The notes below the pieces were generated by a model. That model was not told the DNA's origin. It made no database searches and saw only the letters and a list, made by a program, of their open reading frames with translations. A DNA stretch of 64,000 nt, taken from contig JAGCPH010000037.1 of the NCBI GenBank assembly GCA_017645275.1, positions 29,783-93,782 of the forward strand, given 5' to 3'. Shown here piece after piece: positions 7,016 to 32,814 of this stretch. Position 1 is the first letter of the stretch, and each line of letters begins with the position of its first letter. This DNA comes from Bacteroidales bacterium (GTDB lineage Bacteria > Bacteroidota > Bacteroidia > Bacteroidales > F082). The translations under genes and the position numbers were made by a program.

Positions 7016-7039
7016 ATCTATATCTTTTTTTTCGGGCTG

Positions 7040-7691: not shown

Positions 7692-8095
7692 ACCTTTAAT
7701 ATATAATGTTCTTTTTTTATCCTTTTCATAACAAAAATCATGCCAAACTTCCAGCAATCGATGCTCAATCGCACCTTCTCGTCACCAATCAGCTTCTCCC
7801 AGTCCCTCTCATTATGCTTGCCGTGATGAATATCCTTCACTATCATCACGACATCATCTTCATTGAAAATCAATGGATTATTATTGATAAAATCTTTCAG
7901 ATTTTTATCCAGCACTTCATAAAACAGATCGTCATTTGAATCTGTCTGAATTGTATGCCGGTGATTTCTCGACTTCGCTCGAAATGACGAGGTGAATGTT
8001 TTCTCAAGCACCTCCTCATAAAGGGAAAATACCATCGGCGAATGCAGATGATATTTCCCCTGCGCTTTTCTACGATATTTCAAATAACTGATAAT
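7688..8095 (-). pseudogene. short ORF resembling the N- and C-terminal parts of a Bacteroidota SAM-dependent methyltransferase-like family, with the central region missing
   Basis: N-terminal part is MIISYLKYRRKAQGKYHLHSPMVFSLYEEVL. C-terminal part is DVVMIVKDIHHGKHNERDWEKLIGDEKVRLSIDCWKFGMIFVMKR. A family-A repeat copy sits at the junction (SSFRAKSRNHR). Family recalled from memory. Confidence 0.35.
7956..7990 (+). repeat. family A REP-like element (short copy), intragenic
   Basis: ccggtgatttctcgacttcgctcgaaatgacgagg. Confidence 0.75.
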
Positions 8096-13152: not shown

Positions 13153-14369
13153 AGCTGCCGTTATTCATAGCGCAACGTTATCTTCTTGCGAAGAAAAGCC
13201 ACAACCTCATCAATATCGTGACATGGATATCCATCGTCAGCGTGGCGGTGGCGGCGTTCGCCATGATTTTCGTGCTCTCCATCTTCAACGGCTTCAACGT
13301 CGTCATCAGCGACAACATCCATAAGATGTCGGCCGATTTGCAGATTACTTCCGTCAGTGGTAAAACGGTGAATATCAACGACTTCCCTTTTGAAAAAATC
13401 AGAGCGATAAAAAATGTGGAGCTCGTTTTGCCGACCATCACTGAGGATGCGCTGTTCCGCAACCAGGACAAGCAGCAAATCGGGCAGATTAAAGGCGTTC
13501 CGAAGGAGTTTTATTCCGTTGAGCGAATCAACAATTCCATAATAAAATCAGGAGGTTTCGGCACCAACGCCGATGTCGCTTTCGCAATTCCAGGCATCGG
13601 GATGGCGTATTATCTGGGCATCAACCCCAACAGCCCGTTTGCTATGGTGCAGGTGTATGTGCCACGTCGAGGCAACGCCTCATCTTTCAACCTCGAAAAC
13701 AGCTTCAACACAGGCCAACTCGTTGTAAATGAGACGTTTTCGACCCTTCAGGACATCGACGAGACGACCATCCTGGCTCCTTACGAATGGCTGTCGGAAC
13801 TCATTGGTTATGAAGGACTTGCATCGGATGTAGAGGTATTCATTCAACAGAACCCTCGTAACATCAATCGTGTCAAGAAACAAATCAAAAATATCCTCGG
13901 GCCCGAATACAATGTTTTGGACCAATACGAGCAGCAGTCGACGCTCTACAAGATGATGAAATCGGAGAAACTCGCTGTGTATCTGATACTTGTGTTCATC
14001 TTAGTGATGGCCACGTTCAACGTCATTGGCTCGCTGTCGATGCTCATCATCGAGAAGCGGAAGGACACCTCCACCATACGTGCTATGGGAGGCGATAACT
14101 CATTGATTCGCAGCATCTTCACCAACGAAGGGATGATAATCTCGGTTGTCGGCGGCATCATCGGTTTGATTCTCGGCATCATCGCGGTGCTGTTGCAGCA
14201 GTATGTCGGCATCATCCGTCTCGGCGACGGCACCGGCAGCTATATCGTTGAGTATTATCCTGTTGCACTCCAGCTAAAAGACGTTCTCATCGTCCTCGCC
14301 ACCATCACCATCATCGGTGGCATCGCAGCCTTCAGCACAGTGAAAGTTTCGATGAAGCGGCTGCATTAA
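13149..14369 (+). CDS. FtsX-like ABC transporter permease (LolE-like)
   Basis: MKLPLFIAQRYLLAKKSHN, 4 TM segments, MacB-like periplasmic domain, C-terminal FtsX region. Confidence 0.8.
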   Translation: MKLPLFIAQRYLLAKKSHNLINIVTWISIVSVAVAAFAMIFVLSIFNGFNVVISDNIHKMSADLQITSVSGKTVNINDFPFEKIRAIKNVELVLPTITEDALFRNQDKQQIGQIKGVPKEFYSVERINNSIIKSGGFGTNADVAFAIPGIGMAYYLGINPNSPFAMVQVYVPRRGNASSFNLENSFNTGQLVVNETFSTLQDIDETTILAPYEWLSELIGYEGLASDVEVFIQQNPRNINRVKKQIKNILGPEYNVLDQYEQQSTLYKMMKSEKLAVYLILVFILVMATFNVIGSLSMLIIEKRKDTSTIRAMGGDNSLIRSIFTNEGMIISVVGGIIGLILGIIAVLLQQYVGIIRLGDGTGSYIVEYYPVALQLKDVLIVLATITIIGGIAAFSTVKVSMKRLH

Positions 14370-14404: not shown

Positions 14405-14674
14405 TTACAATTGCTCAAAATCAGCAAACAAATCGTTGTAATAAAGGTTTTGTGGATTGAATACCAAATCCCACGATTCTCCCCAAACAACGTTACCGTT
14501 CTGGATTTTAAACTCTTTGAAACGAGTCACATCGTGATACTCATCGTAAACTGGATTCGGTTTTTTAATAAAATATGGCTCAAAGTCAACCAAAACACAA
14601 TGGCTATCCTCGAAGACTATTCTGATTTTATAATCTCCGACATATTGTGCATCAACGACTTTGTATTTGTTCAT
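14405..14674 (-). CDS. DUF2442 family protein
   Basis: MNKYKVVDAQYVGDYKIRIVFEDS. Start chosen directly after the stop of the upstream gene. Confidence 0.6.
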   Translation of the reverse strand: MNKYKVVDAQYVGDYKIRIVFEDSHCVLVDFEPYFIKKPNPVYDEYHDVTRFKEFKIQNGNVVWGESWDLVFNPQNLYYNDLFADFEQL

Positions 14675-14973
14675 ATTTTTTTGTTTATCTCTTCGCAAAC
14701 AACTTTTTCTTTTAAGACAAAAACCTTATGCCATTTCATGGCGATTTCTACAGCGTATTTCTCTACAAAACGCACAGCTTCCTTATATTTTGCTAATGGA
14801 AGTGGCTCAAATCCCTTGGAATTGCGAGTCTCTATAGCTTTCAAAACTCCATTTTCAAAAATGATAATGAAAACCGTTTCGCAATCGTCATATTTTGCGT
14901 GAACGTGTAGCGGCTCGTGTTCGTTTGAATAGAATAAAAACACTATTCCAAGGTAATCATAAATCTTAGGCAT
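14671..14973 (-). CDS. DUF4160 family protein
   Basis: MPKIYDYLGIVFLFYSNEHEPLHVHAKY is the characteristic N-terminus. Confidence 0.7.
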   Translation of the reverse strand: MPKIYDYLGIVFLFYSNEHEPLHVHAKYDDCETVFIIIFENGVLKAIETRNSKGFEPLPLAKYKEAVRFVEKYAVEIAMKWHKVFVLKEKVVCEEINKKI

Positions 14974-19615: not shown

Positions 19616-19623
19616 CAAAAATA
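19616..19623 (-). promoter_or_regulatory. -7 box TAttTTTG (minus strand)
   Basis: Forward caaaaata, 20 nt upstream of the serS ATG. Confidence 0.55.
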
Positions 19624-19655
19624 ATAAATTTTTAAAAAACTTCAACTTTTTTTCG

Positions 19656-21239
19656 TCATTTCACATCTCTTGCCGCCCTCACTGCACTTCCGTAATACGG
19701 AATCTCATACTCCACCACTATCAAATCGTAATTATTTGTCCTTGAATCGAAGGTGTTGTTGTCGAATTTCACCACATTCATGCCAGTGCTAGTCCAGTAA
19801 AAACCAGCTTCGCCTCCACCCCTATAATCTTGAATATATCGCAAGCCTGCTGCAGGCAGAAACACCGCTCCTGCCGTCTCAAACACCGATTCCCATTCCG
19901 ACAATGAGATTTTGTTTGGCGCGCTGTCGTATCTGTCTTTTGCCTTCTTAAACTTATAAACCGCTGCCGCCCAGTCGTCAGGAAGCAATATCACGCCATT
20001 GACGCCATTTACCTGCGCCTTGGCATATCTCAATCCCGACATTGTCACACGTTTGTTGAGAATATAGTCCCATTCCTCGCTCGTCAAGGTGCGCCAAACG
20101 TTTCTCTTGTCGCCTCCGTTGGAGATTTTATTCACGCACCAGTCAAAAAATGGTGATTCGAAATAATACGGAAGTTTGGTGGTCGTAGCCGTAGGCCTGT
20201 TGCCGGTGCCACACGCGAAAAGGTCAAGCCAGCCTGCGTATTTCTTCGAGATATTTGCATTTCCAGCTCCCACAATATCCCATTGGTGTTCGGCAAAACG
20301 CCAAATCTTTTCTTTAGGGTTATATTGAAGGTTTCCTTTTGCGAAAACCACCTTGTCGCCCTTTGAATTGATGGCAAACAGTCCGCTCAAGGCACCCACA
20401 GGAACCGGCTGCAATGTCTTATTTATCTCATATGTCTTGCCTTCTTCGACGTAAAGCTCCGCATGCTCAGGATAATTGTCTGATTTCTTGATGGTTACGA
20501 CATGCGACCCAGTGATAATGTCATCCAACACCAATGGCGTTTTGCCACGACTAAGGCTATCTACATACACCGTAGCTCCTGCTGGCTCCGATGTCACCTT
20601 CAGGGTTCCGTGCGCAAAAGGCATCTCAATAACTATGTCATTGTCGGAACCGTCAACAATCTCTATGGTTTTCGTCACTGTCTGGTATTTCTCCAGCGAC
20701 ACTGTTATTTCGTAGGTGCCTGCCGCCATCATCTTGTTGAAATATGGCGTTTTCACCTTTAAAACCTTGCCATTCAGCTTTATCGTGGCACCGTTTTCCG
20801 GTATCGTTGACACTTTGAGCGCGCCCCAGCCTGCATTTACGGCTTTCACATTATTTACAAGCACAAGCTCATAGCCGGCTTTTGGCCGCATCTCCAAAGG
20901 AATATCGAAGCTCACCGAGCCGAGTTCAGGATGCGAAATCTTCAGTCTCGACGCCTTATGTGTGATATAAACCCACACCTCGCCATCTTTGTATTCCAAT
21001 TCAAAAAATACTGTTGCAATATTGCCAGAGTCGAAATTTAAGGCGCGGCGCTCCTTATCGGTGATGTTCTCGGTTCGCACTTTGATGACGGCATAAGGCA
21101 CGTAGTTCAAATCATACTGTCGTGATGTGATGTTGACAAAGCCAGGCACCTCCTTAAAGGAGCCTTCCTTCACTGAAATCTGCGCATTCGCGGCAAGCGA
21201 TAACAGGAAAACACCTAAAAAAAGCAAAAAATAACGTCT
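19656..21239 (-). CDS. secreted modular protein P1: shared N-module, 2 PEGA repeats, FISUMP-like lectin-fold C-terminal domain
   Basis: Signal peptide MRRYFLLFLGVFLLSLAANAQ. N-module ISVKEGSFKEVPGFVNI...PYAVIKVRTENITDKERR...GEVWVYI...LKISHPE...GYELVLVN. PEGA repeats such as GTLKVTSEPAGATVYVDSLSRGKTP. C-terminus GNLQY..WRFAEHQW..WRTLTSEEWDY..AVFLPAAGLRY..FYWTST..GSAVRAARD. Start chosen by analogy with the paralogs; the ORF extends to 21257. Confidence 0.7.
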   Translation of the reverse strand, partial: RRYFLLFLGVFLLSLAANAQISVKEGSFKEVPGFVNITSRQYDLNYVPYAVIKVRTENITDKERRALNFDSGNIATVFFELEYKDGEVWVYITHKASRLKISHPELGSVSFDIPLEMRPKAGYELVLVNNVKAVNAGWGALKVSTIPENGATIKLNGKVLKVKTPYFNKMMAAGTYEITVSLEKYQTVTKTIEIVDGSDNDIVIEMPFAHGTLKVTSEPAGATVYVDSLSRGKTPLVLDDIITGSHVVTIKKSDNYPEHAELYVEEGKTYEINKTLQPVPVGALSGLFAINSKGDKVVFAKGNLQYNPKEKIWRFAEHQWDIVGAGNANISKKYAGWLDLFACGTGNRPTATTTKLPYYFESPFFDWCVNKISNGGDKRNVWRTLTSEEWDYILNKRVTMSGLRYAKAQVNGVNGVILLPDDWAAAVYKFKKAKDRYDSAPNKISLSEWESVFETAGAVFLPAAGLRYIQDYRGGGEAGFYWTSTGMNVVKFDNNTFDSRTNNYDLIVVEYEIPYYGSAVRAARDVK

Positions 21240-21246
21240 CATAATT

Positions 21247-22722
21247 TTAATTATCAAGTACCAGTCGCAAGCCTAAATCTTTGGCCTTCGTATCTGGTTT
21301 GAAATATACGCTCGAAGTGTTTTTGCACCTATCTGCTTCGCACGAAAAGCTTCCGCCCATGGCGCAATGGAAGCCGTTGGCATCGACATCGGTGCACATC
21401 TCATAAACATTGCCGCTCATGTCGAACAATCCGAGTTCGTTGTCGTGTTTCTCGGCAATATTATGGATGCTTCGTGTCATGTTGTAATAATCCTGCTGCT
21501 GTTCCTGGGTGTGTCGCCGGCCCATCAGATAACTGCCGCTGTTGCCGTTATACCACGCCACTTTGTTGATGTCGTTGTCGCCACTGTATTCGTAGCCTTT
21601 GCTCCATTTTCCGCCTTTTGCGGCATATTCCCATTCAGCTCGGGTGGGCAATCGGAAATTAGCCTTCGTCATCTTGTTAAGCTTCTTTATAAACTTAAGA
21701 CAATCATCGTATGTCACCGATTCAACCGGATGACGACTGCCTCCGTTTCTGCTTGGGTTATCGCCCATAACCGTTTTCCAAAGCTCTTGTGTCACCTCTG
21801 TTCTCCCAATATAATAATCGCCCGAAGGTCCGCCTTTCACCAAAATCATGTCGAAAATCGCTTTTTTGACAGTAAAAGACTTAATTATTTTAGCAACAAT
21901 GAGTGGCATTTTATAAACCCAATCTTCATCATCTTCAAGAATCATGGTTTCTTCAATGACGTTATACTCGTCTTTGACCAATTTCAACTTATGTTTTCCA
22001 ACTTTTATATCATTGACAATCAACGGTGTAACACCTTTATCAACGCCATCGATATAAACTGTTGCGCCGGCAGGATATGTCTCGATATTGATAATGCCAT
22101 ATGAAAGATCCAAATCGATATTGATTTTTTCTTCTTTGCCTTTTACAATGTTTATCTGGCGTGTAACTGTCTGATAATTCTTTTTTGAGACCACCAATTC
22201 ATGTTGTCCTGCTGCCATCACATCATTAGTATAAGGTGTTGTCTCGCTCACTTTGACGCCGTTTATCAGCACTGTGGCGCCAGCCGGGTTGGTGGTGACA
22301 GTTAAAACACCTGTGCCGCCGCCGTTTCTGTCGATGGCGCCATTCACCAGCACCAGTTCGTAACCTTGCAATGGCTGCAAATCGTATGGAATGGTAAATT
22401 CCGTCGAGCTGAGGTCGGGATGTGTGATTTTCAGATATGTAGCAAGATATGTGAGATACACCCACACCTCGTTTCCATGAACTTCCACCTCGAGAAACGT
22501 ACGAGCGTCGCCTTTGAAATCCAATTTCGGCAGTTCGTCGGCACTCAAATTCTCCGTCTTTATCCTGATGACCGCAAACGGGGTGTAGTTGTCGTCGGTC
22601 ATGTCTTCCTTCATCGTGAAAAACTGACCGGCATCATGAAACGAGCCTTCCTTTACTGAAATCTGGGCTCTCACACATAACGATGCAAACAATATCAACA
22701 ATAAAACATATAAACGTCTCAT
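21247..22722 (-). CDS. secreted modular protein P2: shared N-module, 2 PEGA repeats, FGE/SUMF1-like C-terminal domain
   Basis: Signal peptide MRRLYVLLLILFASLCVRAQ and the N-module. PEGA repeats such as GVLTVTTNPAGATVLINGVKV. C-terminus IGRTEVTQELWKTVMGDNPS..HPVESVTYDDCLKFIKKLN..FRLPTRAEWEYAAKGG..GLFDMSGNVYEM..GGSFSCEADRC..LGLRLV. Confidence 0.75.
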   Translation of the reverse strand: MRRLYVLLLILFASLCVRAQISVKEGSFHDAGQFFTMKEDMTDDNYTPFAVIRIKTENLSADELPKLDFKGDARTFLEVEVHGNEVWVYLTYLATYLKITHPDLSSTEFTIPYDLQPLQGYELVLVNGAIDRNGGGTGVLTVTTNPAGATVLINGVKVSETTPYTNDVMAAGQHELVVSKKNYQTVTRQINIVKGKEEKINIDLDLSYGIINIETYPAGATVYIDGVDKGVTPLIVNDIKVGKHKLKLVKDEYNVIEETMILEDDEDWVYKMPLIVAKIIKSFTVKKAIFDMILVKGGPSGDYYIGRTEVTQELWKTVMGDNPSRNGGSRHPVESVTYDDCLKFIKKLNKMTKANFRLPTRAEWEYAAKGGKWSKGYEYSGDNDINKVAWYNGNSGSYLMGRRHTQEQQQDYYNMTRSIHNIAEKHDNELGLFDMSGNVYEMCTDVDANGFHCAMGGSFSCEADRCKNTSSVYFKPDTKAKDLGLRLVLDN

Positions 22723-22726
22723 ATAC

Positions 22727-22779
22727 TTAAACTCTAAACTTTAATACTACTCTAAACTCTACACTCTCAACTCTAAACT
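22727..22779. repeat. family D G-free heptad-like tract
   Basis: ttaaactctaaactttaatactactctaaactctacactctcaactctaaact. Lies between the P5 stop and the P2 start. Confidence 0.8.
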
Positions 22780-24589
22780 AATTGAATCTCACGTCGCTCA
22801 TATTCATCAACTTCTCGAGATCGACCTTGTCAGGCTGCCAGGCACGGACGTGGATTAGAGGCTGTGCTCCACGCAAGTCGACGAGCAGGAACAGATAGCC
22901 CACATCGCCATACGATGACGAGAAATATTCCTGTCGCACGCGCACTCCGTACACGTCTTTGGTGTTGTTAGCCTTGGTGAAATCTGTCTCAGTGAAGCGC
23001 AGTCTGATGTACTCGTTGTTACCGAAACACTGCCTGAGATTATTCATGTAGGTGTCCTTGTCGTATTTCGTCAGCTCGGCCTCTTCAGCCGTCAGCTTCA
23101 GCGTCAGACGGTCAGGAATCTCGGTCTTTTTCACCATGCGGCCCACGATGATAAGTGCGTCGTCGGAATAGATGCTCTCGAGGTATCTGTGTCGTTTCAA
23201 GGCGTATGCCGTCTGGTAATCCTCAAGAAAATTCACCAAGATAAGTCTCGAATCCTCGGGCCATTTCGTCTTCGAGATGATGTCGTATTCGGCCTGGTCG
23301 GAGAGACGGAACGCCAGCGAGGTCACTACCTTATTAATAGTGTCGAAGCGGAACACCACGTCTTGCGAGAAGCCCGGCGTGTTACGGAAGTCGAACTGCA
23401 GGGTGATGCTTCGGCAGAGCACTTCGTCCTTATATTTCAATAACTTATAGTCAGGTTTGCCCACCACGGTCATCCTGCCATAATGCGAGAGGGTGTCGAG
23501 CATGTTGTAGCCTTCTGTCGAGAAGCACTCGCGTGCCATAGAAATATTATTATTACGTAAAGCATTCTCTATCAGCGACATACGCTCAAGATAAATGTTT
23601 TCGCTCACGGCACGGTTATGTTCCACCTTGTTCCAGCCCTGCACCTCTTCGTCTTTCTTGACGTTCATGGTCTTCTCGAGGTCGACGGTGTAGATATTGT
23701 TAGAGAAACGCGGCACTTTGATGAGTTCGATGGCGTTCGACACGGCCACATTCATCTTCTTGGCATCTTCTTTAAAGTCGTAGTTCACCTTGATTTTGAA
23801 ACTCTTGGCATCTTTGTCGTGCAGCTGAACAATGAGTTTGCCGTCGCGCACGGTGTTAGGCATGAACTTACGTCCATCATGGCATTCGCAGCGAAGGTTA
23901 ACCACGTCCTGGCCGGATGTGTTCTGCACACGGAGCTTCACGATCATTCCGTCGTCGGTCTGTTCGATGCCGTTTTCTTTCGGGACGATGAATTTAAACG
24001 ACCTCAGTATGCCGTCGTTGCCGCTGATACGTTCCACAAGCCATTCATAATCAACGGTTCCGCTGTCGCCATGGAAAAGCAGTTTCTTGCCTTGAGGGTG
24101 TGCGTAGGTGAGCATCAGGGCCCAGTAATATGCTTTCAGGGCGTCTTCGAGGCAGACATCCTCTTCCATCTTCATACCTTTTATAATATAGCGTTGTATG
24201 TCGTCGCGGCGTTCGTTGCACAAGGCGCGGAAGTCGGGGCGTCGGATGACTATAAGGTATTGATATTCTTCGTCATCGTCGTCTTCGATCACTGCTCTCT
24301 CCAAGGCTTTCTCGTCGATTCTCTCCTTGAAAGTCCTGATGATGTTTTCCACTTGTTTGTCGCCGTTTCCGGCAATGTATATTGCGTTGGAGTTGCAGTT
24401 TTTGGCGATATTGGCATAAAGTTCGCTTCTTGCGGCCTCGGTTGCCTCGTCCGACGAGTTGCACACGTTGCTCAGTCCATAGTACAGTGTGGTGTCGTTT
24501 TTGATGGCTTCCAGTTCTTTTTGTTTTATCTGTGCGAATGCTATATTAGCTAAAGCCATAAAAACCAGTAATATATAAAATCTCTTCAT
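22778..24589 (-). CDS. secreted 603-aa protein P5 of unknown function (N-terminus possibly LPP20-like)
   Basis: Signal peptide MKRFYILLVFMALANIAFAQ. No motif that I can name with confidence. Embedded in the P-gene operon. Confidence 0.6.
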   Translation of the reverse strand: MKRFYILLVFMALANIAFAQIKQKELEAIKNDTTLYYGLSNVCNSSDEATEAARSELYANIAKNCNSNAIYIAGNGDKQVENIIRTFKERIDEKALERAVIEDDDDEEYQYLIVIRRPDFRALCNERRDDIQRYIIKGMKMEEDVCLEDALKAYYWALMLTYAHPQGKKLLFHGDSGTVDYEWLVERISGNDGILRSFKFIVPKENGIEQTDDGMIVKLRVQNTSGQDVVNLRCECHDGRKFMPNTVRDGKLIVQLHDKDAKSFKIKVNYDFKEDAKKMNVAVSNAIELIKVPRFSNNIYTVDLEKTMNVKKDEEVQGWNKVEHNRAVSENIYLERMSLIENALRNNNISMARECFSTEGYNMLDTLSHYGRMTVVGKPDYKLLKYKDEVLCRSITLQFDFRNTPGFSQDVVFRFDTINKVVTSLAFRLSDQAEYDIISKTKWPEDSRLILVNFLEDYQTAYALKRHRYLESIYSDDALIIVGRMVKKTEIPDRLTLKLTAEEAELTKYDKDTYMNNLRQCFGNNEYIRLRFTETDFTKANNTKDVYGVRVRQEYFSSSYGDVGYLFLLVDLRGAQPLIHVRAWQPDKVDLEKLMNMSDVRFN

Positions 24590-24600
24590 AAAAAGTAATA

Positions 24601-25683
24601 TTAATTCTCTATATCACAAACCAAACGAACACTCTGTCCGATATATCGGCCGCGGGAATCTGTAACATAAATATCACCAGATAAAAAGTACACATTATAT
24701 GCGCCAACACCAGAATTGTTAGTCGCCGACCAATATAAGCCTCGGAAACCAACAAGATTCATTGTTGTACCTTCACGCCAACCAGCAGAAGGCAAAAACA
24801 CGGCTCCATTAGCCTCGAAAATGTTATTCCAATCTGTAGATGAGATTTCGTTTTCCGGAAAATCCACAGTGCCTACGTTAGGACTATTCAGATTATAAAG
24901 GGCGTTATCCCAATCATCGGGTAACAGCACCACTCCCCAGGTGCCATCCACTATAGCTTTAGCGAATCTGATTCCACTGCTTGTAGAGCGTTCATTGAAC
25001 ACATAAGACCACTCGTCTTTTGTCAGAGTTCTCCATAAGTTGGCTGCATTGCCGCCGTTGGAGATCGGGTTGGCACCCCAGTCGGTGAATGCCGGATAAT
25101 TGACATTATCTGTTGAAGAATTTGTAGGATTGTCGCCGGTTCCCCATCCAAACATGTCAATCCAGCCGTCGTAAGTTGAGGAGATATTGGAATTGTTTTC
25201 GCCTATACAGACAAACTGGTTATCGGCAAAACGCCATGTGCCTGTTGATGCCCTATATTGCAGATTGCCTTGAGAAAAACTGACTTTTTGTGTCGCACTG
25301 ACTGAAAACTCACTTTTAATCAATCCAGGAAAATCAGTCTGAACACTTTTAACATCAGTTTTTATAATATCAACGCCGTTATTGCATTCAATACAATAAT
25401 AATATAAGGTGTTTTCTGTCAAATTCTCAAAATTAATCACAAACTGATTACCGTTTACAGTAGCATTTGCGCTTGATGCGTTGCTCATGTCGCTGTTTCG
25501 GCTAATGTAGCCCACCACACTTTTCAGCGCAGTAACGTAAGTGTAACTTGCCGATACTTTAATAGAAGTGGTGCTCTTGACAACGCTTTCTGAGGTTATC
25601 TCTAGTTTTTCAATTGTCAATTCTCTTTTTTTGCATCCAAAAAACAAGAGCGGTATCAATGCTATTATCAAATACTTTTTCAT
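24601..25683 (-). CDS. lipoprotein with Ig/Fn3-like N-terminal region and FISUMP-like lectin-fold C-terminal domain
   Basis: Lipobox LLFFGCKK. The C-terminal domain matches P1: GNLQYRASTGTWRFADNQF..GWIDMFGWGTG..WRTLTKDEWSY..AVFLPSAGWR..LYWSAT..GQSVRLVCD. Confidence 0.7.
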   Translation of the reverse strand: MKKYLIIALIPLLFFGCKKRELTIEKLEITSESVVKSTTSIKVSASYTYVTALKSVVGYISRNSDMSNASSANATVNGNQFVINFENLTENTLYYYCIECNNGVDIIKTDVKSVQTDFPGLIKSEFSVSATQKVSFSQGNLQYRASTGTWRFADNQFVCIGENNSNISSTYDGWIDMFGWGTGDNPTNSSTDNVNYPAFTDWGANPISNGGNAANLWRTLTKDEWSYVFNERSTSSGIRFAKAIVDGTWGVVLLPDDWDNALYNLNSPNVGTVDFPENEISSTDWNNIFEANGAVFLPSAGWREGTTMNLVGFRGLYWSATNNSGVGAYNVYFLSGDIYVTDSRGRYIGQSVRLVCDIEN

Positions 25684-25685
25684 AA

Positions 25686-27008
25686 CTATTTGTTTTTAAG
25701 TCCTAATCCTAAACCTATTTTAATTTCAAACATATTGAAACCTGTTGTAACACCATCAACAGAGACAACAAAACCGCGGAAATTGCCTTGCAAGCCGAGT
25801 GACAAATCGATGCCTTGGGCACTTGTCGAAGTGTCTTTCACCCAATAGCCGCTGCTTGTTTCATAGCGTTGCATCCTGATGCCGTAGCCCACTCCCACTC
25901 TGAAAGCCATCGGACCCGAAATACGCATCAAAAAGCCGCCCATCACAGAGAGCGAGGTGTATGAGCCGTTGTCTGTATATTGCGGATAATATGAAGTTCC
26001 GTCAATTGTAACGTAATGATTTTCATCACATTCATAATCGTATTTGGTGTCGAACTTGAAATTGGTCATCACACTTGCGAACCATCCGAAGCGTTTCATA
26101 CTTCCTATTGTTATGCCATACGCCATATCATTATACTGATTCATTGAAGCGTTGAGTGTCAGGAACTTATACTTTATCGGCATATTCAGACTCAAGCTGA
26201 TGTCGCTTTCATCACTCACTGTGATTCTACGTCTGGCATCGTCAAAGCCGCCTTTCACCACTCTTACGGTATGGTCTCCACTCTTCAATTTTATTGATTT
26301 TAAAGGAGTTAAGCCCGTTTCGGTGCCATCAATGTAAACTTTGGCACCATTTTCGGGGCTGCTTGTCACGTTGACATAACCGTATGCCGGACGCAGTTTG
26401 CGTTCAACTGTTATCGGGTCGCCAACCGGAATCTCGGCTGTTCCGTTTTCTGTATGGAAATATTCGCATTCTATGCGCCATTCGTGGGTCTCGCCTGCTG
26501 GAAGTTCTTTTGAAATTTCATTCTCACCCACAAAAACATCGTCAATAAAAATACGTGAATTCGGCTGGTCGGCTTTGACAATCAGATAGTTATAGACAAT
26601 TTCAGCTTCTTCACTATTCCATTTGCTAATCAGTGTCACCTCATAGCCGTGTTTCGGTTTCATATCAGATGGAAAATAGAACTCAACCGAGCTCATATCG
26701 GGATGCGAAATCTTGATATATGAAGCGTAGTAGCTGATGTAGAGCCACACTTCGCCTGTCTGGTATTCCACTTCGAAAAACGTGCGGGCATCGCCTTGGA
26801 ACAGCAGCTCGCGTCGTTGTTTGTCGGTTATTTTCTCCGTACGAATCTTCAGTACGGCATATGGCTGGTCATTGTCGTCGTACATCTTTTCGGTGTTGAT
26901 GTTCACAAAACCTAGCACTTCCTTAAAGGAGTTGGGTTTTATCTCCAGCTGTGCAAAAGCTGGCAACGATAACAATGTCACTAATAACAATAGTAGAACT
27001 TTCCTCAT
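25686..27008 (-). CDS. secreted modular protein P3: shared N-module, PEGA repeats, beta-strand-rich C-terminal domain (possible membrane anchor)
   Basis: Signal peptide MRKVLLLLLVTLLSLPAFAQ and the N-module. PEGA repeat YGYVNVTSSPENGAKVYIDGTETGLTP. The C-terminal ~170 aa has an alternating hydrophobic pattern rich in G/Y/F, ending FEIKIGLGLGLKNK. Start set at the M downstream of the -7 box. Confidence 0.65.
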   Translation of the reverse strand: MRKVLLLLLVTLLSLPAFAQLEIKPNSFKEVLGFVNINTEKMYDDNDQPYAVLKIRTEKITDKQRRELLFQGDARTFFEVEYQTGEVWLYISYYASYIKISHPDMSSVEFYFPSDMKPKHGYEVTLISKWNSEEAEIVYNYLIVKADQPNSRIFIDDVFVGENEISKELPAGETHEWRIECEYFHTENGTAEIPVGDPITVERKLRPAYGYVNVTSSPENGAKVYIDGTETGLTPLKSIKLKSGDHTVRVVKGGFDDARRRITVSDESDISLSLNMPIKYKFLTLNASMNQYNDMAYGITIGSMKRFGWFASVMTNFKFDTKYDYECDENHYVTIDGTSYYPQYTDNGSYTSLSVMGGFLMRISGPMAFRVGVGYGIRMQRYETSSGYWVKDTSTSAQGIDLSLGLQGNFRGFVVSVDGVTTGFNMFEIKIGLGLGLKNK

Positions 27009-27027
27009 TTTATAAAAATTAATGGCA

Positions 27028-27035
27028 CAAAAATA
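27028..27035 (-). promoter_or_regulatory. -7 box TAttTTTG (minus strand) for the P3-P1 operon
   Basis: Forward caaaaata, 20 nt upstream of the ATG at 27008 and directly downstream of the rpmA terminator. Confidence 0.55.
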
Positions 27036-27072
27036 CAAATTTTCTGGAACAAAAACAAATTAATAAAAAAAT

Positions 27073-27100
27073 GTAGAGACATACGACCGTATGTCTCTAC
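27073..27100 (-). terminator. rho-independent terminator of rplU-rpmA (family E palindrome)
   Basis: gtagagacatacgaccgtatgtctctac has a 12-bp stem. On the minus strand it is followed by attttttt. Confidence 0.75.
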
Positions 27101-27736: not shown

Positions 27737-27774
27737 TAATTTGTATTTAATATTTTTTCAAATTTTTCGGACTG

Positions 27775-27782
27775 CAAAAATA
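27775..27782 (-). promoter_or_regulatory. -7 box TAttTTTG (minus strand) for rplU-rpmA
   Basis: Forward caaaaata, 39 nt upstream of the rplU ATG. T7-G-A6 tract at 27807-27820. Confidence 0.6.
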
Positions 27783-27827
27783 CAACTTTTATTAATACGC
27801 CCGACATTTTTTTGAAAAAATTAATTT

Positions 27828-28661
27828 TCATCTCAAAACGATGCGGAATCCCACAGTGGCGTTGCGTCCGTTGTGTTCAATTTCACGGCCGTGGTAAGCT
27901 GATGTGCAGGTGTAGGATTCGCTGTCGTAGCAGCCGCCGCAGCCCACAATAACTTCGCCCGACTCGGGACCGGTATAGTCGAGACCCTGTTCGGCAGGGA
28001 GGTCGGCCAGTTCAGCATACCAGTCGTTGCAGTATTCCCAGACGTTACCGCTCAGGTCGTAGATGCCGAGCTCGTTGGGCTGCTTAGAAGCCACGAAATG
28101 GGAGGCTTGTCCGGCGTTGTCGGTATACCATGCCACATCGCTTATCGTGTTTGAACCAGCGTAGGTGTATCCCTGCGACTTGCGTCCTCCGTTGGCGGCA
28201 TAGTGCCATTCAGCTTCAGTGGCGAGGGCAAAATGCATACCGGCGGGCAGCTGGTCGGCGCACATCGTGTTCAACCTGTCGAGGAAGCCGCCTTCCTTGA
28301 CGATGTCGTAGTAGTTCAGATTGCTGACGGGGTATGAGTCGCCATTGTTCGATTGTCCTTCGGGTTTCCAGCCCATAACATCGTACCAAAGCTTGTTGGT
28401 CACCTCGACGGGACAAATGTAGAAATCGGATAGCGTTCCTGTGACGGTCATCTCTTGGTCATCGTAAATATATTCCATCGAGTAATCGCCGCCTTTCACC
28501 TTTTACATTATAAACTCTTCAGAAGAATTGTTTACTTTAAAGGTGAGCGTCTCTGCAACCCACTGGTTGTTGTTAGTTGGAGTTTCCTTCTTGCAGCCGG
28601 TAAAGGTAATTGCGCTGAAAACGATTGTGGCGGCAATCGCCCATGATAAAAGAGTTTTCAT
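27828..28661 (-). pseudogene. FGE/SUMF1-like lipoprotein gene interrupted by one in-frame TAA
   Basis: The two ORFs 28503-28691 and 27828-28499 are in the same frame. Together they read MKTLLSWAIAATIVFSAITFTGCKK...SSEEFIM-TAA(28503-28505)-KVKGGDYSMEY...VEVTNKLWYDVMGW...ATEAEWHYAANGG...GIYDLSGNVWEY...VGFRIVLR. Confidence 0.8.
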
Positions 28662-28688
28662 TGTGATAAAATTTTTGACAAATCTGTG

Positions 28689-28696
28689 CAAAGATA
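28689..28696 (-). promoter_or_regulatory. -7 box TAtcTTTG (minus strand), promoter-module copy R1
   Basis: Forward caaagata, 28 nt upstream of the ATG at 28661. Part of the conserved ~55-nt module at 28683-28740. Confidence 0.6.
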
Positions 28697-28743
28697 CAAT
28701 TTTTAATCACGCAGCCAGTTTTTTGAAAAAATTAAATTTATAA

Positions 28744-28815
28744 AGCGGCGACCTTAATGGCGTAATGCCATTAATGCCGTTAAAGCCCTTAAGGCAGCCG
28801 CTGAAGGTGGTTTAA
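28744..28815. repeat. family B hairpin cluster
   Basis: agcggcgaccttaatggcgtaatgccattaatgccgttaaagcccttaaggcagccgctgaaggtggtttaa. Confidence 0.75.
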
Positions 28816-29000
28816 TAATATTGTAAACTATACAGTATTTATAAAAATCACATTATTTGAATTCTTCTGGATGCTCCAGCTGATAGAGTATCTTCTTAAC
28901 TTCATCACCCTTTTGAGCAAAATCCAGATCGCTCATTTTTTCGCACTTTTTGTTAAAAATTTTTAACACTTTTCTGCTTGACTGATAAGGATTTTTGGTA

Positions 29001-29008
29001 TATTTTTG
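29001..29008 (+). promoter_or_regulatory. -7 box TAttTTTG (plus strand)
   Basis: tatttttg, 48 nt upstream of the ATG at 29056. Confidence 0.5.
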
Positions 29009-29055
29009 CAGCCAAGAATTCAAAGCATTTTTTGAAATCTTTTAATTTTAAAACT

Positions 29056-29586
29056 ATGGAAGGAAAAAACGAACATCTATTCATTGTAAAAGCCAATAAG
29101 AATCATGGATTTGCATCTTTCTCAGAGGCTAGAAAATGGGCTAAAGAAAACATAATCGGCGATATACAACAACCAATCATAGGAGTTGTTAATATTAGCG
29201 GAAAGGCTATTGAAAAATTTTTGAGCGAAAAGGCTGTAGATAAAAGTACTACCAAAGATGCACACTTGTCTGCATTAAAGGTGTTACCTAACATCATTGA
29301 GAATTCTCTGATTGGAGAAATACACTATGATAGAGACAACAATCCAAACATTCGTGATATAGTTCGCCTTTATGGATATGTTATTATCGGAGATGACAAC
29401 TATCGGGTAAAAACTACAATAAAACGATATAACGACAAAAACTTAAAATCAAAGGCATACAGTTATGAAGTAACAAAAATCGAACTGTTAGAAGGCTTTA
29501 GTGCAACAACGCATACACATAGTGCTGACTTTGTTCCCACATCTAACAATTCGATTTCCAACCGCAAAGATACAACAAATTTTTGA
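29056..29586 (+). CDS. orphan 176-aa protein resembling a domain found in phage or conjugative-element polyvalent proteins (PBECR/LPD-like)
   Basis: MEGKNEHLFIVKANKNHGF...ISGKAIEKFLSEKAVDKSTTKDAHLSALKVLPNIIENSLIGEIHYDRD...YRVKTTIKRYND...KAYSYEVTKIE. Pattern recalled from polyvalent-protein modules. The last 8 codons lie in promoter-module copy R2. Confidence 0.45.
   Translation: MEGKNEHLFIVKANKNHGFASFSEARKWAKENIIGDIQQPIIGVVNISGKAIEKFLSEKAVDKSTTKDAHLSALKVLPNIIENSLIGEIHYDRDNNPNIRDIVRLYGYVIIGDDNYRVKTTIKRYNDKNLKSKAYSYEVTKIELLEGFSATTHTHSADFVPTSNNSISNRKDTTNF
29565..29572 (-). promoter_or_regulatory. -7 box TAtcTTTG (minus strand), promoter-module copy R2, with no downstream minus-strand gene
   Basis: Forward caaagata inside the conserved module 29563-29620. 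It points antisense into the 3' end of ORF 29056-29586. Confidence 0.45.
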
Positions 29587-29619
29587 ACGCGCAGCCAGTT
29601 TTTTGAAAAAATTTTTCGA

Positions 29620-29720
29620 CGGTTTATTATTATTCTGCTCCGCTTGCCTCTTCATTTCGAAGACGCACGTCCGTACGTCTCTACATTTCGCGGCTTGCTT
29701 CGCTTCATTATAATAAACCG
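29620..29720. repeat. long inverted repeat enclosing degenerate family A/E sequence; likely bidirectional terminator region
   Basis: Arm cggtttattat (29620-29630) pairs with ataataaaccg (29710-29720), followed by T8 on the plus strand. The interior contains cgaagacgcacgtccgtacgtctctac. Confidence 0.5.
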
Positions 29721-29760
29721 TTTTTTTTAGCTTAGTATGATGGACTTCGTCGTAGTAAAA

Positions 29761-31965
29761 CTAAGGGACAAGCACGAGGCGGAAACCGTAGTAGTAGTAC
29801 CTGAAGTCTGGAATGCTGGCGCGCCGATTCGAAACCCGACAGCCCCTCGCGTAGTCGCTCCAGCAACCGCCACGAAGCACGCGGTCCGAGCCCGAAGACG
29901 GTCCCTGCTGGTTGGTCTGGCTACTGCTGCTGTAGTTGCCGTACCAGTCCTGGCACCACTCCCAAACGTTTCCGCTCATGTCATAGATGCCGAGCTCGTT
30001 TGGCGTTTTCGCCCCAACTGGATGCGTCTTGCTTCCGCTATTGCCATCGTACCACGCCACATTGTCAATGCTGTTGCTTCCGCTGTATTTGTATCCGTTG
30101 CTCTTGTTGCCACCTCTTGCCGCGTATTCCCATTCGGCTTCTGTAGGAAGTCGGAAGTTTGCACCTGTTTTCTGGTTGAGTTTTCTAACAAACTCTTGAC
30201 ATTCATTCCAACTAATGTAATACATCGGGTAATTGTTTCCTTCTCCCCTCAAAGACCACGATTTGTCTGCCTGGTCGCGCTGTTGGCTAACTGTTGTGCC
30301 CATAACAGCATACCAGAGCTCTTGTGTAACTTCAAACTTTCCGATATAATAGTCGCCTAATGTCACGCTGTGCGAAGGCTTTTCGTCATCATCACAATCG
30401 CCGCCTTGCTCCAATGTACAGCCCATGGTAAATGTGCCGCCTTTTACGGCTATCATTTCAAAGGTAACGCCGTTTACAGTGAAGGTTTTGTTTTCTAATC
30501 TGAACGTCAGCTTAACCGAAGTGTCACCTCCACTCTGCGCCACTGTTATGGTTTTCTTGCTCTCTTTGCTGTCGCGCACGGCTTTCACTTCGTGGTTTCC
30601 GAAGCTTAAAGTCGAAGTTAATGGGCTTGTACCAATGTAGTTACCATCAACATATATCTTGTCGCCAGTGCCGTCGGTGGATATGGAGATTTCTCGTCCT
30701 GTCGCCAGTTTCTCATTTATAGTCAATTTGTTTTTGTCATCAAGAGTGATGTTTTTAACAACTGGGGAGCATCCCGTTTTTTCGAGTCGCAGCTCATGAG
30801 TTCCTATCAAAACATTAGTCAACACTCGCGGGGTGGTACCGAAACTCTTGCCGTCGATAATGATATTGGCGCCGATAGGGTTTGTCGAGACATCCAATGT
30901 GCCATATATTGGCGTAGGATTAGGTATCACTATGTTCTCGTCCTTGCCGAGGGTGAGTTTGATATTTTCCACCGAGTTGCGATGCGATGCCTTGCGAGCA
31001 TCGAAGGCATGATTGCCGTCGCTCAACCGTCCGCTCCAAGTGCCTTTGCCTTTAAACTCATTGTCAATGTAAATATCTGATTCCGAATCGGTTGTGACAG
31101 TCACATTCACAAAATTGGCTAACATTGTCATAGCAGCTTGGGTTGTGTTGCCATCAGTTATTGTGAAAGTCTGTTCGGCAGGAGAAAACATCTCTTTCAT
31201 AACCCTAACTTTATGTTCGCCGCTTGCCAATTTGTCGGTTTTATAAGGTGTTTGGCCAGCTTTTTTGCCATCGATATACACTATGGCGCCACTTTCAGGG
31301 CTGCTCGTCACGTTCAGATAGCCGAATGCAGGCTTCAGTGTCTTTTCAATCGTTATATTTTGGCCTTCTTTTTCAGGAATTGTGGCTTCACCGCTCTCGG
31401 TATGGTAAAGCTCGCATTCGATGCGCCATGTGTGCTTCTCACCAGCCATAAACGACTTCTGGGCAAACTGTTCACCAGCAAAAACATCGTCTATATATAC
31501 TGCGGAGTTTGGTTGGTCGGCGGTTATCACAAGATAGTTATATACATCGACTACTGGCACCATTCCGGTCTTATTCACAAGCGTCATCTCATATCCTTTC
31601 TTAGGTTGCAAATCGAAAGGTATTGTAAATTCAATAGAGCTGAAGTCTGGATGTGAAATCTTAAGATAATAGGCATATTTTGCTGTGAGATATACCCACA
31701 CTTCGCCTGTTTTATACTCAAGCATTATTCCGACAGCCAGATTGCTCTCGAAACGCAAATCACGACGTTGTTTATCGGTGATGTTTTCGGTTCTAACCTT
31801 AATCACCGCAAACGGCAAGTCGTTGTCATCATTCTGATAATTCTGGTCAGGATTGATATTCACGAAGCCTGGCACTTCCTTGAAAGAGCCTTTCTTCACC
31901 TCCAACTGAGCCCACATCGGGATTGACAAAAACAAAACAACTACCAGTGGTATAAATCGCCTCAT
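29761..31965 (-). CDS. secreted modular protein P4: shared N-module, ~5 PEGA repeats, FGE/SUMF1-like C-terminal domain
   Basis: Signal peptide MRRFIPLVVVLFLSIPMWAQ and the N-module LEVKKGSFKEVPGFVNI..PFAVIKVRTENITDKQRR..GEVWVYL..LKISHPD..GYEMTLVN. PEGA repeats such as YGTLDVSTNPIGANIIIDGKSFGTTP. C-terminus FEMIAVKGGTFTMG..IGKFEVTQELWYAVMG..FRLPTEAEWEYAARGG..GIYDMSGNVWEW..RVLRGGCW..GFRLVL. Confidence 0.8.
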   Translation of the reverse strand: MRRFIPLVVVLFLSIPMWAQLEVKKGSFKEVPGFVNINPDQNYQNDDNDLPFAVIKVRTENITDKQRRDLRFESNLAVGIMLEYKTGEVWVYLTAKYAYYLKISHPDFSSIEFTIPFDLQPKKGYEMTLVNKTGMVPVVDVYNYLVITADQPNSAVYIDDVFAGEQFAQKSFMAGEKHTWRIECELYHTESGEATIPEKEGQNITIEKTLKPAFGYLNVTSSPESGAIVYIDGKKAGQTPYKTDKLASGEHKVRVMKEMFSPAEQTFTITDGNTTQAAMTMLANFVNVTVTTDSESDIYIDNEFKGKGTWSGRLSDGNHAFDARKASHRNSVENIKLTLGKDENIVIPNPTPIYGTLDVSTNPIGANIIIDGKSFGTTPRVLTNVLIGTHELRLEKTGCSPVVKNITLDDKNKLTINEKLATGREISISTDGTGDKIYVDGNYIGTSPLTSTLSFGNHEVKAVRDSKESKKTITVAQSGGDTSVKLTFRLENKTFTVNGVTFEMIAVKGGTFTMGCTLEQGGDCDDDEKPSHSVTLGDYYIGKFEVTQELWYAVMGTTVSQQRDQADKSWSLRGEGNNYPMYYISWNECQEFVRKLNQKTGANFRLPTEAEWEYAARGGNKSNGYKYSGSNSIDNVAWYDGNSGSKTHPVGAKTPNELGIYDMSGNVWEWCQDWYGNYSSSSQTNQQGPSSGSDRVLRGGCWSDYARGCRVSNRRASIPDFRYYYYGFRLVLVP

Positions 31966-31990
31966 AAAGCTAGTATTTCAATTGAAGGTA

Positions 31991-31998
31991 CAAAATTA
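31991..31998 (-). promoter_or_regulatory. -7 box TAatTTTG (minus strand) for P4
   Basis: Forward caaaatta, 26 nt upstream of the ATG at 31965. Confidence 0.5.
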
Positions 31999-32040
31999 TA
32001 GATAATTTGGAAGAAAACAAAATTTTTTGATAAAAATTAT

Positions 32041-32048
32041 TATTTTTG
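32041..32048 (+). promoter_or_regulatory. -7 box TAttTTTG (plus strand)
   Basis: tatttttg, ~110 nt upstream of the ATG at 32159. Confidence 0.4.
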
Positions 32049-32158
32049 CATCTGATTTTGGATTAAAACCCTTCCTGAGCATTTGTAAAACATATTTACC
32101 CAAAAGGAATCGCCCGATTGCCTACTGGAATTTTATTGATTTTATAAATTTTGAAATT

Positions 32159-32590
32159 ATGGTAAAACAAAGTAAAAATAAAGTTAAACTTAACAAGAAA
32201 TACAAGGCTATAGGACGCATTCCGATAGCGGCATTAAGAAAAATCCAGGAAGTGATGGAGCTGCCTGATAATGTTCGAATTATCAGGGCTAATATCACAA
32301 ACACCATCAAACATAATCTGAGACACATGGCAGATATGGATAAGCAATTGTCATTACTTGGTCTAACAAAAGAAGACTATGCTGAATTTGTTGCACGAAA
32401 TTACAATGAGATTCATATAGGGAACAAACCATATTCATTGATACTAGCTGTAACTCACATGGATGATCACGATCATATTGCTGCAGTTCACCTGAATTAC
32501 AATAAAAGCGAAAATTTTTGGCTTGTCACCACTGTTCATTCTATAAAGCCTCATGATTTACAGAAGATTCCATTGATTTGGAAGAAATAA
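32159..32590 (+). CDS. orphan 143-aa protein resembling PBECR-type (phage Barnase-EndoU-ColicinE5/D-RelE-like) nuclease domains
   Basis: MVKQSKNKVKLNKKYKAIGRIPIAALRKIQEVMELPDNVRIIRANITNTIKHNLRHMAD...YSLILAV...IAAVHLNYNKSENFWLVTTVHS. Layout recalled from polyvalent-protein nuclease modules and not verified. Confidence 0.4.
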   Translation: MVKQSKNKVKLNKKYKAIGRIPIAALRKIQEVMELPDNVRIIRANITNTIKHNLRHMADMDKQLSLLGLTKEDYAEFVARNYNEIHIGNKPYSLILAVTHMDDHDHIAAVHLNYNKSENFWLVTTVHSIKPHDLQKIPLIWKK

Positions 32591-32616
32591 AAAAGGAGGC
32601 CGAAACCTCCTTTTAT
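32591..32616. terminator. bidirectional rho-independent terminator
   Basis: aaaaggagg-ccgaaa-cctcctttt hairpin flanked by A-runs and T-runs on both strands. Confidence 0.75.
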
Positions 32617-32712
32617 ATCGTAGTTGCCCAAGTTACGAGACCGCTTGCTCGGCCTGCCTGTTAGCTACCCAACACACAGTAATGCAAGATGTGAGGGCCT
32701 GGGCGAAATCAG
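32591..32712 (-). ncRNA. candidate ~120-nt structured small RNA (unclassified)
   Basis: A consensus promoter module (-7 box at 32719-32726) points into a GC-rich non-coding stretch ending at the terminator 32591-32616. A long-range helix GCCCAGG (32698-32704) pairs with CUUGGGC (32626-32632) and encloses two hairpins. Confidence 0.45.
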
Positions 32713-32718
32713 ACACTG

Positions 32719-32726
32719 CAAAGATA
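32719..32726 (-). promoter_or_regulatory. -7 box TAtcTTTG (minus strand), promoter-module copy R3
   Basis: Forward caaagata inside the module 32713-32768, which is highly similar to 29563-29620 and 28683-28740. Confidence 0.55.
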
Positions 32727-32814
32727 CAACAAATTTTTTAACGTGCAGCCAAATTTTTTAAAAAAATATGAAGAATATTTTTCGTATTTTCGTGTTTTTA
32801 GATGTAAAAAATAT

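Follow-up and report, generated by a model that had tools for sequence, protein, structure and literature searches.

How did a row of secreted proteins with a common beginning and different ends come to stand between the rpmA terminator and serS in a Bacteroidales genome, and what could these proteins do? The locus lies in a stretch of 64,000 nucleotides (nt) of contig JAGCPH010000037.1, called here the window. A preliminary description of the window placed five minus-strand genes there, and a scan of open reading frames (ORFs) recovered them with the coordinates of Table 1. That description took them for one operon of surface-displayed binding proteins with a shared N-terminal module (N-module) of ~110 amino acids (aa). 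We use the working names P3, Lipo, X603, P2 and P1 for the five genes, P4 for a further paralog outside the block, and LEC for the head that P1 and Lipo have in common. L-numbers designate the related loci and contigs compared. We consider it rather probable that the locus is the X603 transcription unit with captured cassettes, and that the cassettes supply the cell envelope with variable ligand-binding heads, varied at three levels.

Cassettes inserted around a resident gene

The five genes do not look like one evolved operon. The three closest contigs (L076, L078 and L079; 91-97% nt identity) have purL and then rplU-rpmA-X603-serS, with an X603 that is 94% identical. None of them has an N-module gene at this locus. 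Because these closest relatives have rplU-rpmA-X603-serS only, the operon is, by sequence comparison, not an ancestral unit. The neighbourhood comparison shows a resident X603 with two strain-specific inserted cassettes.

We set the breakpoints by DNA alignment of the window with L078, and for insertion II also with L076 and L079. Insertion II brought P3 and Lipo in between X603's own promoter and its ATG. In L078, the region of the promoter box at 27028 lies ~20 nt upstream of the X603 ATG, and the homology to the window stops exactly at 27028. Insertion III, with P2 and P1, lies after the stop codon of X603 and before the serS promoter. Both cassettes are promoter-less. A third insertion, island I, contains an interrupted lipoprotein-FGE gene, an ORF with an LPD3 domain, P4, and an ORF without known family. 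It is missing from L014 too.

Other relatives have differing N-module genes at the same X603 flanks (L006, L014, L002, L010, L072 and L074). In L006, genes for a barrel protein and a LEC protein stand upstream of X603, and the downstream side is empty. L014 has a single N-module-LEC gene upstream, with P2/P1-like genes on the downstream side, and L002 has the pair of barrel protein and lipoprotein downstream. At the P3 position, L006 presents an N-module 95% identical to that of P4, yet joined to a barrel. It means that modules and heads reassort. In L067, L072 and L074, the N-module genes flank X603 homologues only 28-39% identical to that of the window. In total, 6 of the 70 N-module loci surveyed adjoin X603 homologues, against ~1% expected for a single-copy gene. 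Either a functional link or a long-lasting insertion hot spot would account for this adjacency.

A 51-nt repeat resembling the rplU promoter occurs in four direct copies. One is the native rplU promoter, present in relatives too, and the other three bracket and subdivide the 5-kb island I. One of these three sits exactly where the homology to L017, a locus with a diversity-generating retroelement (DGR), ends. The element may have been a recombination substrate for the capture of the island. The lipoprotein-FGE gene next to it has an in-frame stop codon and is either a pseudogene or the product of a sequencing error. Its ORF at 27828-28499 (223 aa) is a further FGE head, absent from the preliminary list (Pfam FGE-sulfatase, E 8e-25, 88 bits).

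Two plus-strand ORFs of island I are convergent or antisense to the head genes. The one at 29056-29586 encodes an LPD3 ("large polyvalent protein-associated") domain (E 7e-16), which is typical for mobile elements. The one at 32159-32590 has no family and a single homologue (L045).

Head domains and their diversification

The FGE/SUMF1-like heads announced for P2 and P4 are confirmed by the Pfam model FGE-sulfatase (PF03781), with E 2e-29 and 103 bits for P2 and E 1e-51 and 176 bits for P4 (cut-off 23.3). The head shared by P1 and Lipo had been called FISUMP-like. The common head stands, as the two are homologous (42% identity, E 3e-59). The label fails the model test: neither TIGR02145 nor PF09603 matches either window LEC head even at E<=10, and no other Pfam or NCBIfam family does at that threshold. 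Among 17 heads of the LEC family, Fib_succ_major appears in one (E 0.046) and Lcl_C in two (E 0.049), all marginal. One full-length family member matches Lcl_C/DUF1566 (PF07603) at 1.5e-6; the window heads do not. We therefore treat LEC as a predicted head of the DUF1566/Fib_succ_major-like kind, formally unclassified.

P0029, a metagenomic protein of 149 aa, is a natural chimera of the first half of the N-module and the last ~85 residues of LEC. It is tagged in the database with PF26707, an accession not in the Pfam copy searched here. This very recent entry may already cover LEC.

Other identities of the heads were tried with NCBIfam equivalog models and rejected. GldK reaches 46-92 bits against a cut-off of 350, and GldJ 26-31 bits against 458. 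The scores for PvdO, EgtB and LIC10124 are likewise far below their cut-offs.

Template and variable repeats were found by self-comparison of the related loci. In L001, L017 and L048, the variable region (VR) of a head gene is accompanied by a template repeat (TR), and the mismatches between them lie at TR adenines with a single exception (Table 1). The targets are P4-type in L001 and L017; in L048, the target is a LEC lipoprotein downstream of a barrel paralog. An HRDC gene and/or a reverse transcriptase (RT) gene adjoins each target, the RT of L048 lying at the contig end. In L001, an HRDC gene, an RT and an FGE fragment lie beside the X603 homologue. The template peptides are rich in Asn. 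Heads of the FGE type and of the DUF1566/Fib_succ_major type are the two main lectin-fold classes of DGR targets, and HRDC is a known DGR accessory gene (PMC5758913). That DGR targets can bear PEGA domains has been remarked in passing (bioRxiv 10.1101/2020.04.01.020958).

In the window, the 3' end of P4 carries such a region. Compared with the heterologous L017 TR, it has 31 mismatches, at 24 of 40 template adenines and at 7 of 94 other bases (Fisher P = 2.8e-10). Its non-A identity to this TR is 93%, versus 74% over the rest of the gene. All the amino acid differences fall at template-adenine codons, mostly Asn. Since the mismatches concentrate at adenines, the sequence pattern identifies the end of P4 as a DGR-written variable region. 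The idea that the heads are ligand-binding gains plausibility from this region and from the orthologues of both head types that are DGR variable regions in relatives.

When Lipo is compared with the template peptide of L048, the differences occupy 17 of 22 Asn positions but only 12 of the 44 others (P = 2e-4). This peptide comparison is only suggestive of DGR-type variation in Lipo; the adenine pattern is not seen at the DNA level.

The homology between the window and L017 runs ~130 nt past the P4 stop codon and ends where the HRDC gene of L017 starts. This segment (29630-29760, minus strand, against L017 7039-7170) is far better conserved than the P4 gene (74%), and its first ~40 nt are almost identical. 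It may be a DGR homing or hairpin region, kept without its retroelement. A phage origin was considered and rejected: a conserved 23-mer, TACTACGACGAAGTCCATCATAC, which lies just after the stop codons of P4 and of its L017 counterpart, gave no match in IMG/VR. One metagenome scan for alleles of P4 from the same species gave none; the heads found were at most 66% identical, and none had an N-module.

A metagenome contig with related FGE heads (L112, Ga0334886_1004440) has three repeats, at 1638-1758, 4870-4987 and 6871-6991. They are one TR and two VRs, with 94% and 100% of the mismatches at adenines, of a two-target HRDC-type DGR.

The N-module family

The N-module is indeed common to P3, P2, P1 and P4, with 42-55% identity to that of P3 and 37 invariant columns. 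No Pfam or NCBIfam model matches it even at E<=10, which answers the earlier question of a known family. The PEGA repeats reported in P1-P4 are confirmed by PF08308, with E from 1e-21 to 2e-46 and all above the gathering threshold. The scores are 77 bits in P3 (E 1e-21), 103 in P2 (7e-30), 82 in P1 and 156 in P4, against a cut-off of 20.8.

We searched an N-module profile against 1.84 billion representative proteins. It found 407 at E<=1e-3 (122 at E<=1e-30), of 137 to 980 aa in length. The module is always at residues ~20-130, straight after the signal peptide. In the best 146 of these proteins, the heads include 29 of LEC type, 24 of FGE type and 24 C-termini of the P3 barrel type. A Pfam scan of 52 other N-module proteins found PEGA in 46 of them. 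The cargo elsewhere includes seven Sel1 repeats, TPR repeats, two Laminin_G_3 domains, TonB_C, a complete S46 peptidase (Peptidase_S46, E 4.5e-193) and two parvulin peptidyl-prolyl isomerase (PPIase; Rotamase) domains. So, the proposed scheme of a common N-terminal module and a PEGA spacer with interchangeable heads is supported across the family.

In a survey of one genome per species, the N-module was found at 70 loci in 22 uncultured metagenome-assembled genomes, with 1-8 loci per genome. These genomes are mostly of ruminant-gut Bacteroidales, from water buffalo, goat, red deer, cattle and yak. The N-module is thus a previously undescribed handle, restricted to this lineage, to which C-terminal domains of many kinds are joined. 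Because the invariant part is joined to very different cargo, we infer that it is a docking or anchoring handle, not a binding head. Foldseek with the whole P3 model gave no specific fold relative of the N-module, and the matches in the PDB were dominated by the barrel. Those in the viral library were mostly phage tail proteins of a generic tandem beta-sandwich build, and their TM-scores were poor.

A more ambitious scheme can be drawn, to which we give little chance. The N-module would be a dockerin-like handle that hangs interchangeable cargo on a common outer-membrane platform in rumen Bacteroidales. The cargo would include lectin heads that DGRs can diversify, besides peptidases, chaperones and TonB-type domains. 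The barrel-anchored paralog and its partner lipoprotein, perhaps together with X603, would form the platform, and cassettes would be plugged into and out of the X603 transcription unit. If true, it would be a previously undescribed modular envelope scaffold.

The P3 barrel, its partner lipoprotein and X603

The C-terminus of P3 had been described as rich in beta strands and possibly embedded in a membrane. Neither Pfam nor NCBIfam gives a match to it even at E<=10; the Pfam barrel models give weak matches, in P3 relatives only. The AlphaFold2 model (mean pLDDT 88.9) consists of a beta-sandwich chain and then, at residues 280-438, of eight long antiparallel strands, and pLDDT is 89-96 over residues 280-440. 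In Foldseek, the model matches Ail, OmpX, the OmpA transmembrane domain and NspA (E 2.7e-6 to 8e-4, probability 1.0, TM-score by target 0.41-0.59). These predictions agree with the earlier guess of one membrane-anchored paralog. P3 is predicted to end in an OmpX/Ail-like 8-stranded outer-membrane barrel that would anchor it. A gene for such an N-module protein with a barrel, followed by one for a LEC lipoprotein, recurs in at least 15 loci.

For X603, no motif had been named, and indeed no Pfam or NCBIfam family matches it, even at E<=10. It has 627 homologues. Its 28%-identical Bacteroidaceae relative has more than 2321, and some of these (~20 distant ones) are annotated LPP20 (PF02169). The X603 profile matches PDB 4kzs (LPP20) weakly over residues 19-76 (E 0.0034), and PF02169 does not match X603 itself. 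The protein has a signal-peptidase I site, not a lipobox. In its AlphaFold2 model (pLDDT 83, pTM 0.81), the C-terminal domains are NTF2-like (Foldseek, from E 6e-5). X603 is a conserved resident envelope protein of Bacteroidales.

Proposed history of the locus and alternative readings

The strain would have captured two promoter-less two-gene cassettes into the X603 transcription unit, with a third island next door. The cassettes would derive from a lineage-specific multigene family, whose members start with a cleavable signal peptide and the N-module, continue with PEGA beta-sandwich spacers and end in a C-terminal domain that can be exchanged. In the window, this last domain would be an FGE-type head with a C-type lectin fold (P2 and P4), LEC (P1 and Lipo) or the barrel (P3). 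The barrel would anchor P3, habitually paired with the LEC lipoprotein. Three levels of variation would act on the heads. The first is paralog expansion with reassortment of N-modules and heads, as seen in the family. The second would be gain, loss and replacement of cassettes between strains at fixed intergenic points; the arrangement is observed, and the cassettes would be expressed from the resident promoter. Finally, HRDC-type DGRs would direct mutagenesis at adenines in the C-terminal ~45-65 residues of the heads, a process documented in L001, L017 and L048.

Several points weigh against this explanation. The 64-kb window has no TR (the last ~220 nt of all five heads, compared by blastn with the entire window, gave paralog similarity only) and no RT or HRDC gene (phmmer and tblastn with the L001 and L017 proteins, best E 0.65). 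Because all three are missing, current diversification of the window heads is not established. In comparisons with the available templates, P2, P1 and the interrupted FGE gene had no bias towards adenines. Among 80 metagenomic loci with related FGE heads, 6 have an adjacent RT or HRDC gene. Sequence comparison gave no link between LEC and the lectin fold: LEC has no PDB match at E<=10, and hhalign of LEC with FGE gives 12.5% probability and aligns only the motif WRTLTxxEW / RLPTxAEW. The adjacency of N-module genes and X603 may reflect an insertion hot spot, not a functional link. Finally, co-transcription is argued from gene spacing and from missing internal promoter and terminator motifs.

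The place of these proteins in the envelope is disputable. The claim of surface display found no positive support. The sorting domain of the type IX secretion system (T9SS) is missing in these proteins, and Lipo lacks the K-(D/E)2 lipoprotein export signal. A serious rival, which we rate not far below an even chance, is a scaffold in the periplasm, along the outer membrane's inner face. The N-module proteins would remain in the periplasm once signal peptidase has cleaved them. P3 would be tethered to the outer membrane by its barrel, and its N-module and PEGA part would hang into the periplasm. The soluble paralogs would dock through their N-modules to P3, X603 or the cell wall, and the heads would bind envelope or imported ligands.

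Pfam finds no Por_Secre_tail T9SS sorting domain in P1-P4, Lipo or X603, although two other window proteins have one: a Peptidase_C10 protein (5671-6714, minus strand) and a protein without known family (8263-9894, minus strand). These serve as positive controls, and because of them we take the organism to use type IX secretion. The barrel of P3 points the same way. In 8-stranded barrels of the OmpX/OmpA type both termini are periplasmic. Since that of P3 is C-terminal and 8-stranded, its N-module and soluble part would face the periplasm. The N-module cargo found elsewhere (TonB_C, S46 dipeptidyl-peptidase, parvulin PPIase and Sel1/TPR) is of typically periplasmic kinds. The heads match GldK weakly, and PorK/GldK, which are FGE-like lipoproteins, are components of a periplasmic ring.

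The lipoproteins give evidence on both sides. The surface export signal of Bacteroidetes lipoproteins is K-(D/E)2 or Q-A-(D/E)2 right after the lipidated Cys (PMC5080379). The window Lipo begins with CKKRELT and does not fit K-(D/E)2. Nevertheless, four Lipo orthologues (L002, L030, L048 and L058), including the DGR-targeted one of L048, begin with CKKDD or CKKDE and fit it. The characterised DGR variable proteins of both head classes (TvpA and LdtA) are surface lipoproteins (PMC5758913), and a release in outer-membrane vesicles is conceivable. We keep envelope-anchored variable binding proteins as the best reading.

It is unlikely that the block has no concerted function and is a pile-up of paralogs at a recombination hot spot by X603, with heads that are perhaps decaying former DGR targets. 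The closest strains are without any cassettes, the cassette content is different in every relative, the neighbouring head gene has a premature stop, and the DGR module is missing just past P4, all of which would fit such a history. Against it, all five ORFs are intact, with conserved domain boundaries, and the insertions are positioned to inherit a promoter. The pair of barrel protein and LEC lipoprotein is conserved, and N-module genes adjoin X603 homologues, even distant ones, more often than expected.

The FGE-type head of P2 (21250-21400, minus strand) has a C-x4-C motif (SFSCEADRC), at what we take to be the position of the catalytic cysteine pair of FGE. An ability to bind metal might have been kept in P2. 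An enzymatic role of these heads, formylglycine-generating or EgtB/PvdO-like oxidative on envelope substrates, would agree with this motif, with the FGE-sulfatase matches above the cut-off and with sub-threshold NCBIfam matches to PvdO and EgtB, but we find it very unlikely because the equivalog scores are all far under their cut-offs (e.g. 97 bits versus 500, and 74 versus 360), the corresponding residues of P4 fall inside the hypervariable region, and TvpA-type proteins have FGE folds without enzymatic activity (PMC5758913).

Organization of the gene block

Promoters were sought with the pattern TAnnTTTG, as a sigma-70 scan is uninformative in Bacteroidetes. The box at 27028-27035 heads the block, as proposed before. 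The next intergenic minus-strand occurrence is the serS box. No strong minus-strand terminator was found between these two boxes, and the P2 and P1 cassette (19635-22777) contains neither a -7 box nor a strong terminator. The gaps between the genes, from P3 to P1, are 2, 11, 55 and +4 nt with the ATG of P1 (-11 nt with its TTG start). From this spacing and the lack of internal motifs, we infer that the block is co-transcribed from the 27028 box. For P3, the plausible start codon is the ATG at 27008, rather than the upstream TTG.

Elsewhere in the window, a protein of 1602 aa (48421-53229, minus strand) has a C-terminal Omp85 domain as its only Pfam match (E 1.7e-15). It is unusually long for the Omp85 family.

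Table 1. Coordinates of the genes, insertions and repeats discussed. Positions are those of the window, except in the rows of L001, L017 and L048, which have their own numbering.
Feature	Position	Strand	Description
rpmA intrinsic terminator	27073-27100	-	12-bp stem, then T-run; upper boundary of the transcription unit
-7 box TAnnTTTG, Bacteroidetes type	27028-27035	-	pattern match; native X603 promoter, now heading the whole block
P3	25686-27008	-	440 aa; signal peptide, N-module, PEGA-like middle domain, PEGA, predicted C-terminal barrel
P3, N-module	26622-26951	-
P3, PEGA	26181-26375	-
P3, predicted 8-stranded barrel	25689-26171	-
Lipo	24601-25683	-	360 aa; lipobox FFGC, N-terminal beta domain, LEC head at 24604-25338
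X603	22778-24589	-	603 aa; signal peptide, weakly LPP20-like N-terminal domain, beta-sandwich, NTF2-like C-terminal domains
P2	21247-22722	-	491 aa; signal peptide, N-module at 22339-22665, 2 PEGA repeats, FGE-type head
P1	19656-21242	-	528 aa; signal peptide, N-module at 20850-21182, 2 PEGA repeats, LEC head at 19659-20402
serS -7 box TAnnTTTG	19616-19623	-	pattern match; lower boundary of the block
P4	29761-31965	-	734 aa; signal peptide, N-module, PEGA-like domain, 4 PEGA repeats, FGE-type head
P4 VR	29761-29894	-	DGR-type variable region, 134 nt, 3' end of P4
Insertion II (P3 and Lipo)	24590-27027	-	promoter-less; replaces 20 nt of L078/L076/L079
Insertion III (P2 and P1)	19635-22777	-	promoter-less; replaces 36 nt of L078
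Island I	27831-32814		replaces 46 nt of L078 between purL and rplU
Lipoprotein-FGE gene	27828-28661	-	in-frame TAA at 28503-28505; lipoprotein signal MKTLLSWAIAATIVFSAITFTGC
51-nt repeat like the rplU promoter	27771-27821, 28681-28731, 29561-29611, 32715-32765		four direct copies; contains the TAnnTTTG box
L001, P4-type target	VR 6081-6213; TR 7787-7919		22/22 mismatches at TR adenines
L017, P4-type target	VR 6905-7038; TR 8595-8728		14/15 mismatches at TR adenines
L048, LEC lipoprotein downstream of barrel paralog	VR 13479-13679; TR 14491-14688		23/23 mismatches at TR adenines

Comparison with known systems

The closest known counterparts are DGR targets. Like the TvpA-type FGE targets (2018, PMC5758913), P4 has a head that passes the FGE-sulfatase model, a VR at the extreme C-terminus and an Asn-rich template. 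Its orthologues in L001 and L017 stand in cassettes of target, HRDC, RT and TR, with almost adenine-only mismatches. The differences are clear. Of such a cassette, the window contains P4, the target, without HRDC, RT or TR. P4 is not a lipoprotein, and its N-terminal extension of 500 aa (N-module and ~5 PEGA-type domains) is undescribed for TvpA. It also belongs to a multi-paralog family whose stalk bears non-lectin cargo as well.

The LEC heads resemble the LdtA-type targets of Legionella (DUF1566/DUF823/Fib_succ_major, "CLec2", category "d"; Wu et al. 2018). In both, the head is on a lipoprotein, and the family shows the weak mixed Pfam matches to Lcl_C (DUF1566) and Fib_succ_major described for category "d" (PMC5758913). 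The L048 orthologue is a DGR target, with a C-terminal VR of ~65 aa that ends in GQSVRLV. On the other hand, the window LEC proteins have no significant match to those models, and no DGR lies beside the window copies. LEC is also fused to the N-module and PEGA stalk in P1, and the Lipo gene is habitually paired with the barrel-anchored paralog.

The predicted fold of P3 residues ~280-440 is that of OmpX, Ail, the OmpA transmembrane domain and NspA, although the sequence identity is 7-16%. Compared with OmpA, the domain order is reversed: the barrel of P3 is C-terminal to a soluble beta-sandwich array of 280 aa.

Polymorphic cassette loci, such as those of Rhs/CDI C-terminal displacement and pilin cassettes, have a conserved 5' handle and swappable 3' ends. 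The likeness to them is a functional analogy, not homology. Here too, a conserved N-terminal segment is joined to alternative C-terminal domains, genes are replaced between strains at fixed chromosomal points, and the homology breaks just after the N-module. Unlike in those systems, genes for toxins or immunity were not seen, nor were silent truncated cassettes, and every N-module copy is a full gene that encodes its own signal peptide.

Bacteria have few systems of targeted protein hypervariation, and the DGR variable proteins belong to them. To our knowledge, little is known of how their heads are mounted, localised and exchanged beyond phage tail fibres and two lipoproteins. The present finding is not categorically new; it is a variant of the DGR-type variable lectin-fold proteins. 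It has several distinctive features. An undescribed, conserved N-module with a candidate docking role heads a stalk that bears both major classes of lectin-fold head together with unrelated cargo. A further feature is the conserved pairing of a barrel protein with a lipoprotein. Exchange concerns whole genes, in promoter-less cassettes that plug in at fixed sites around X603. Finally, the DGR-written head of P4 is an orphan, which persists without an adjacent retroelement.

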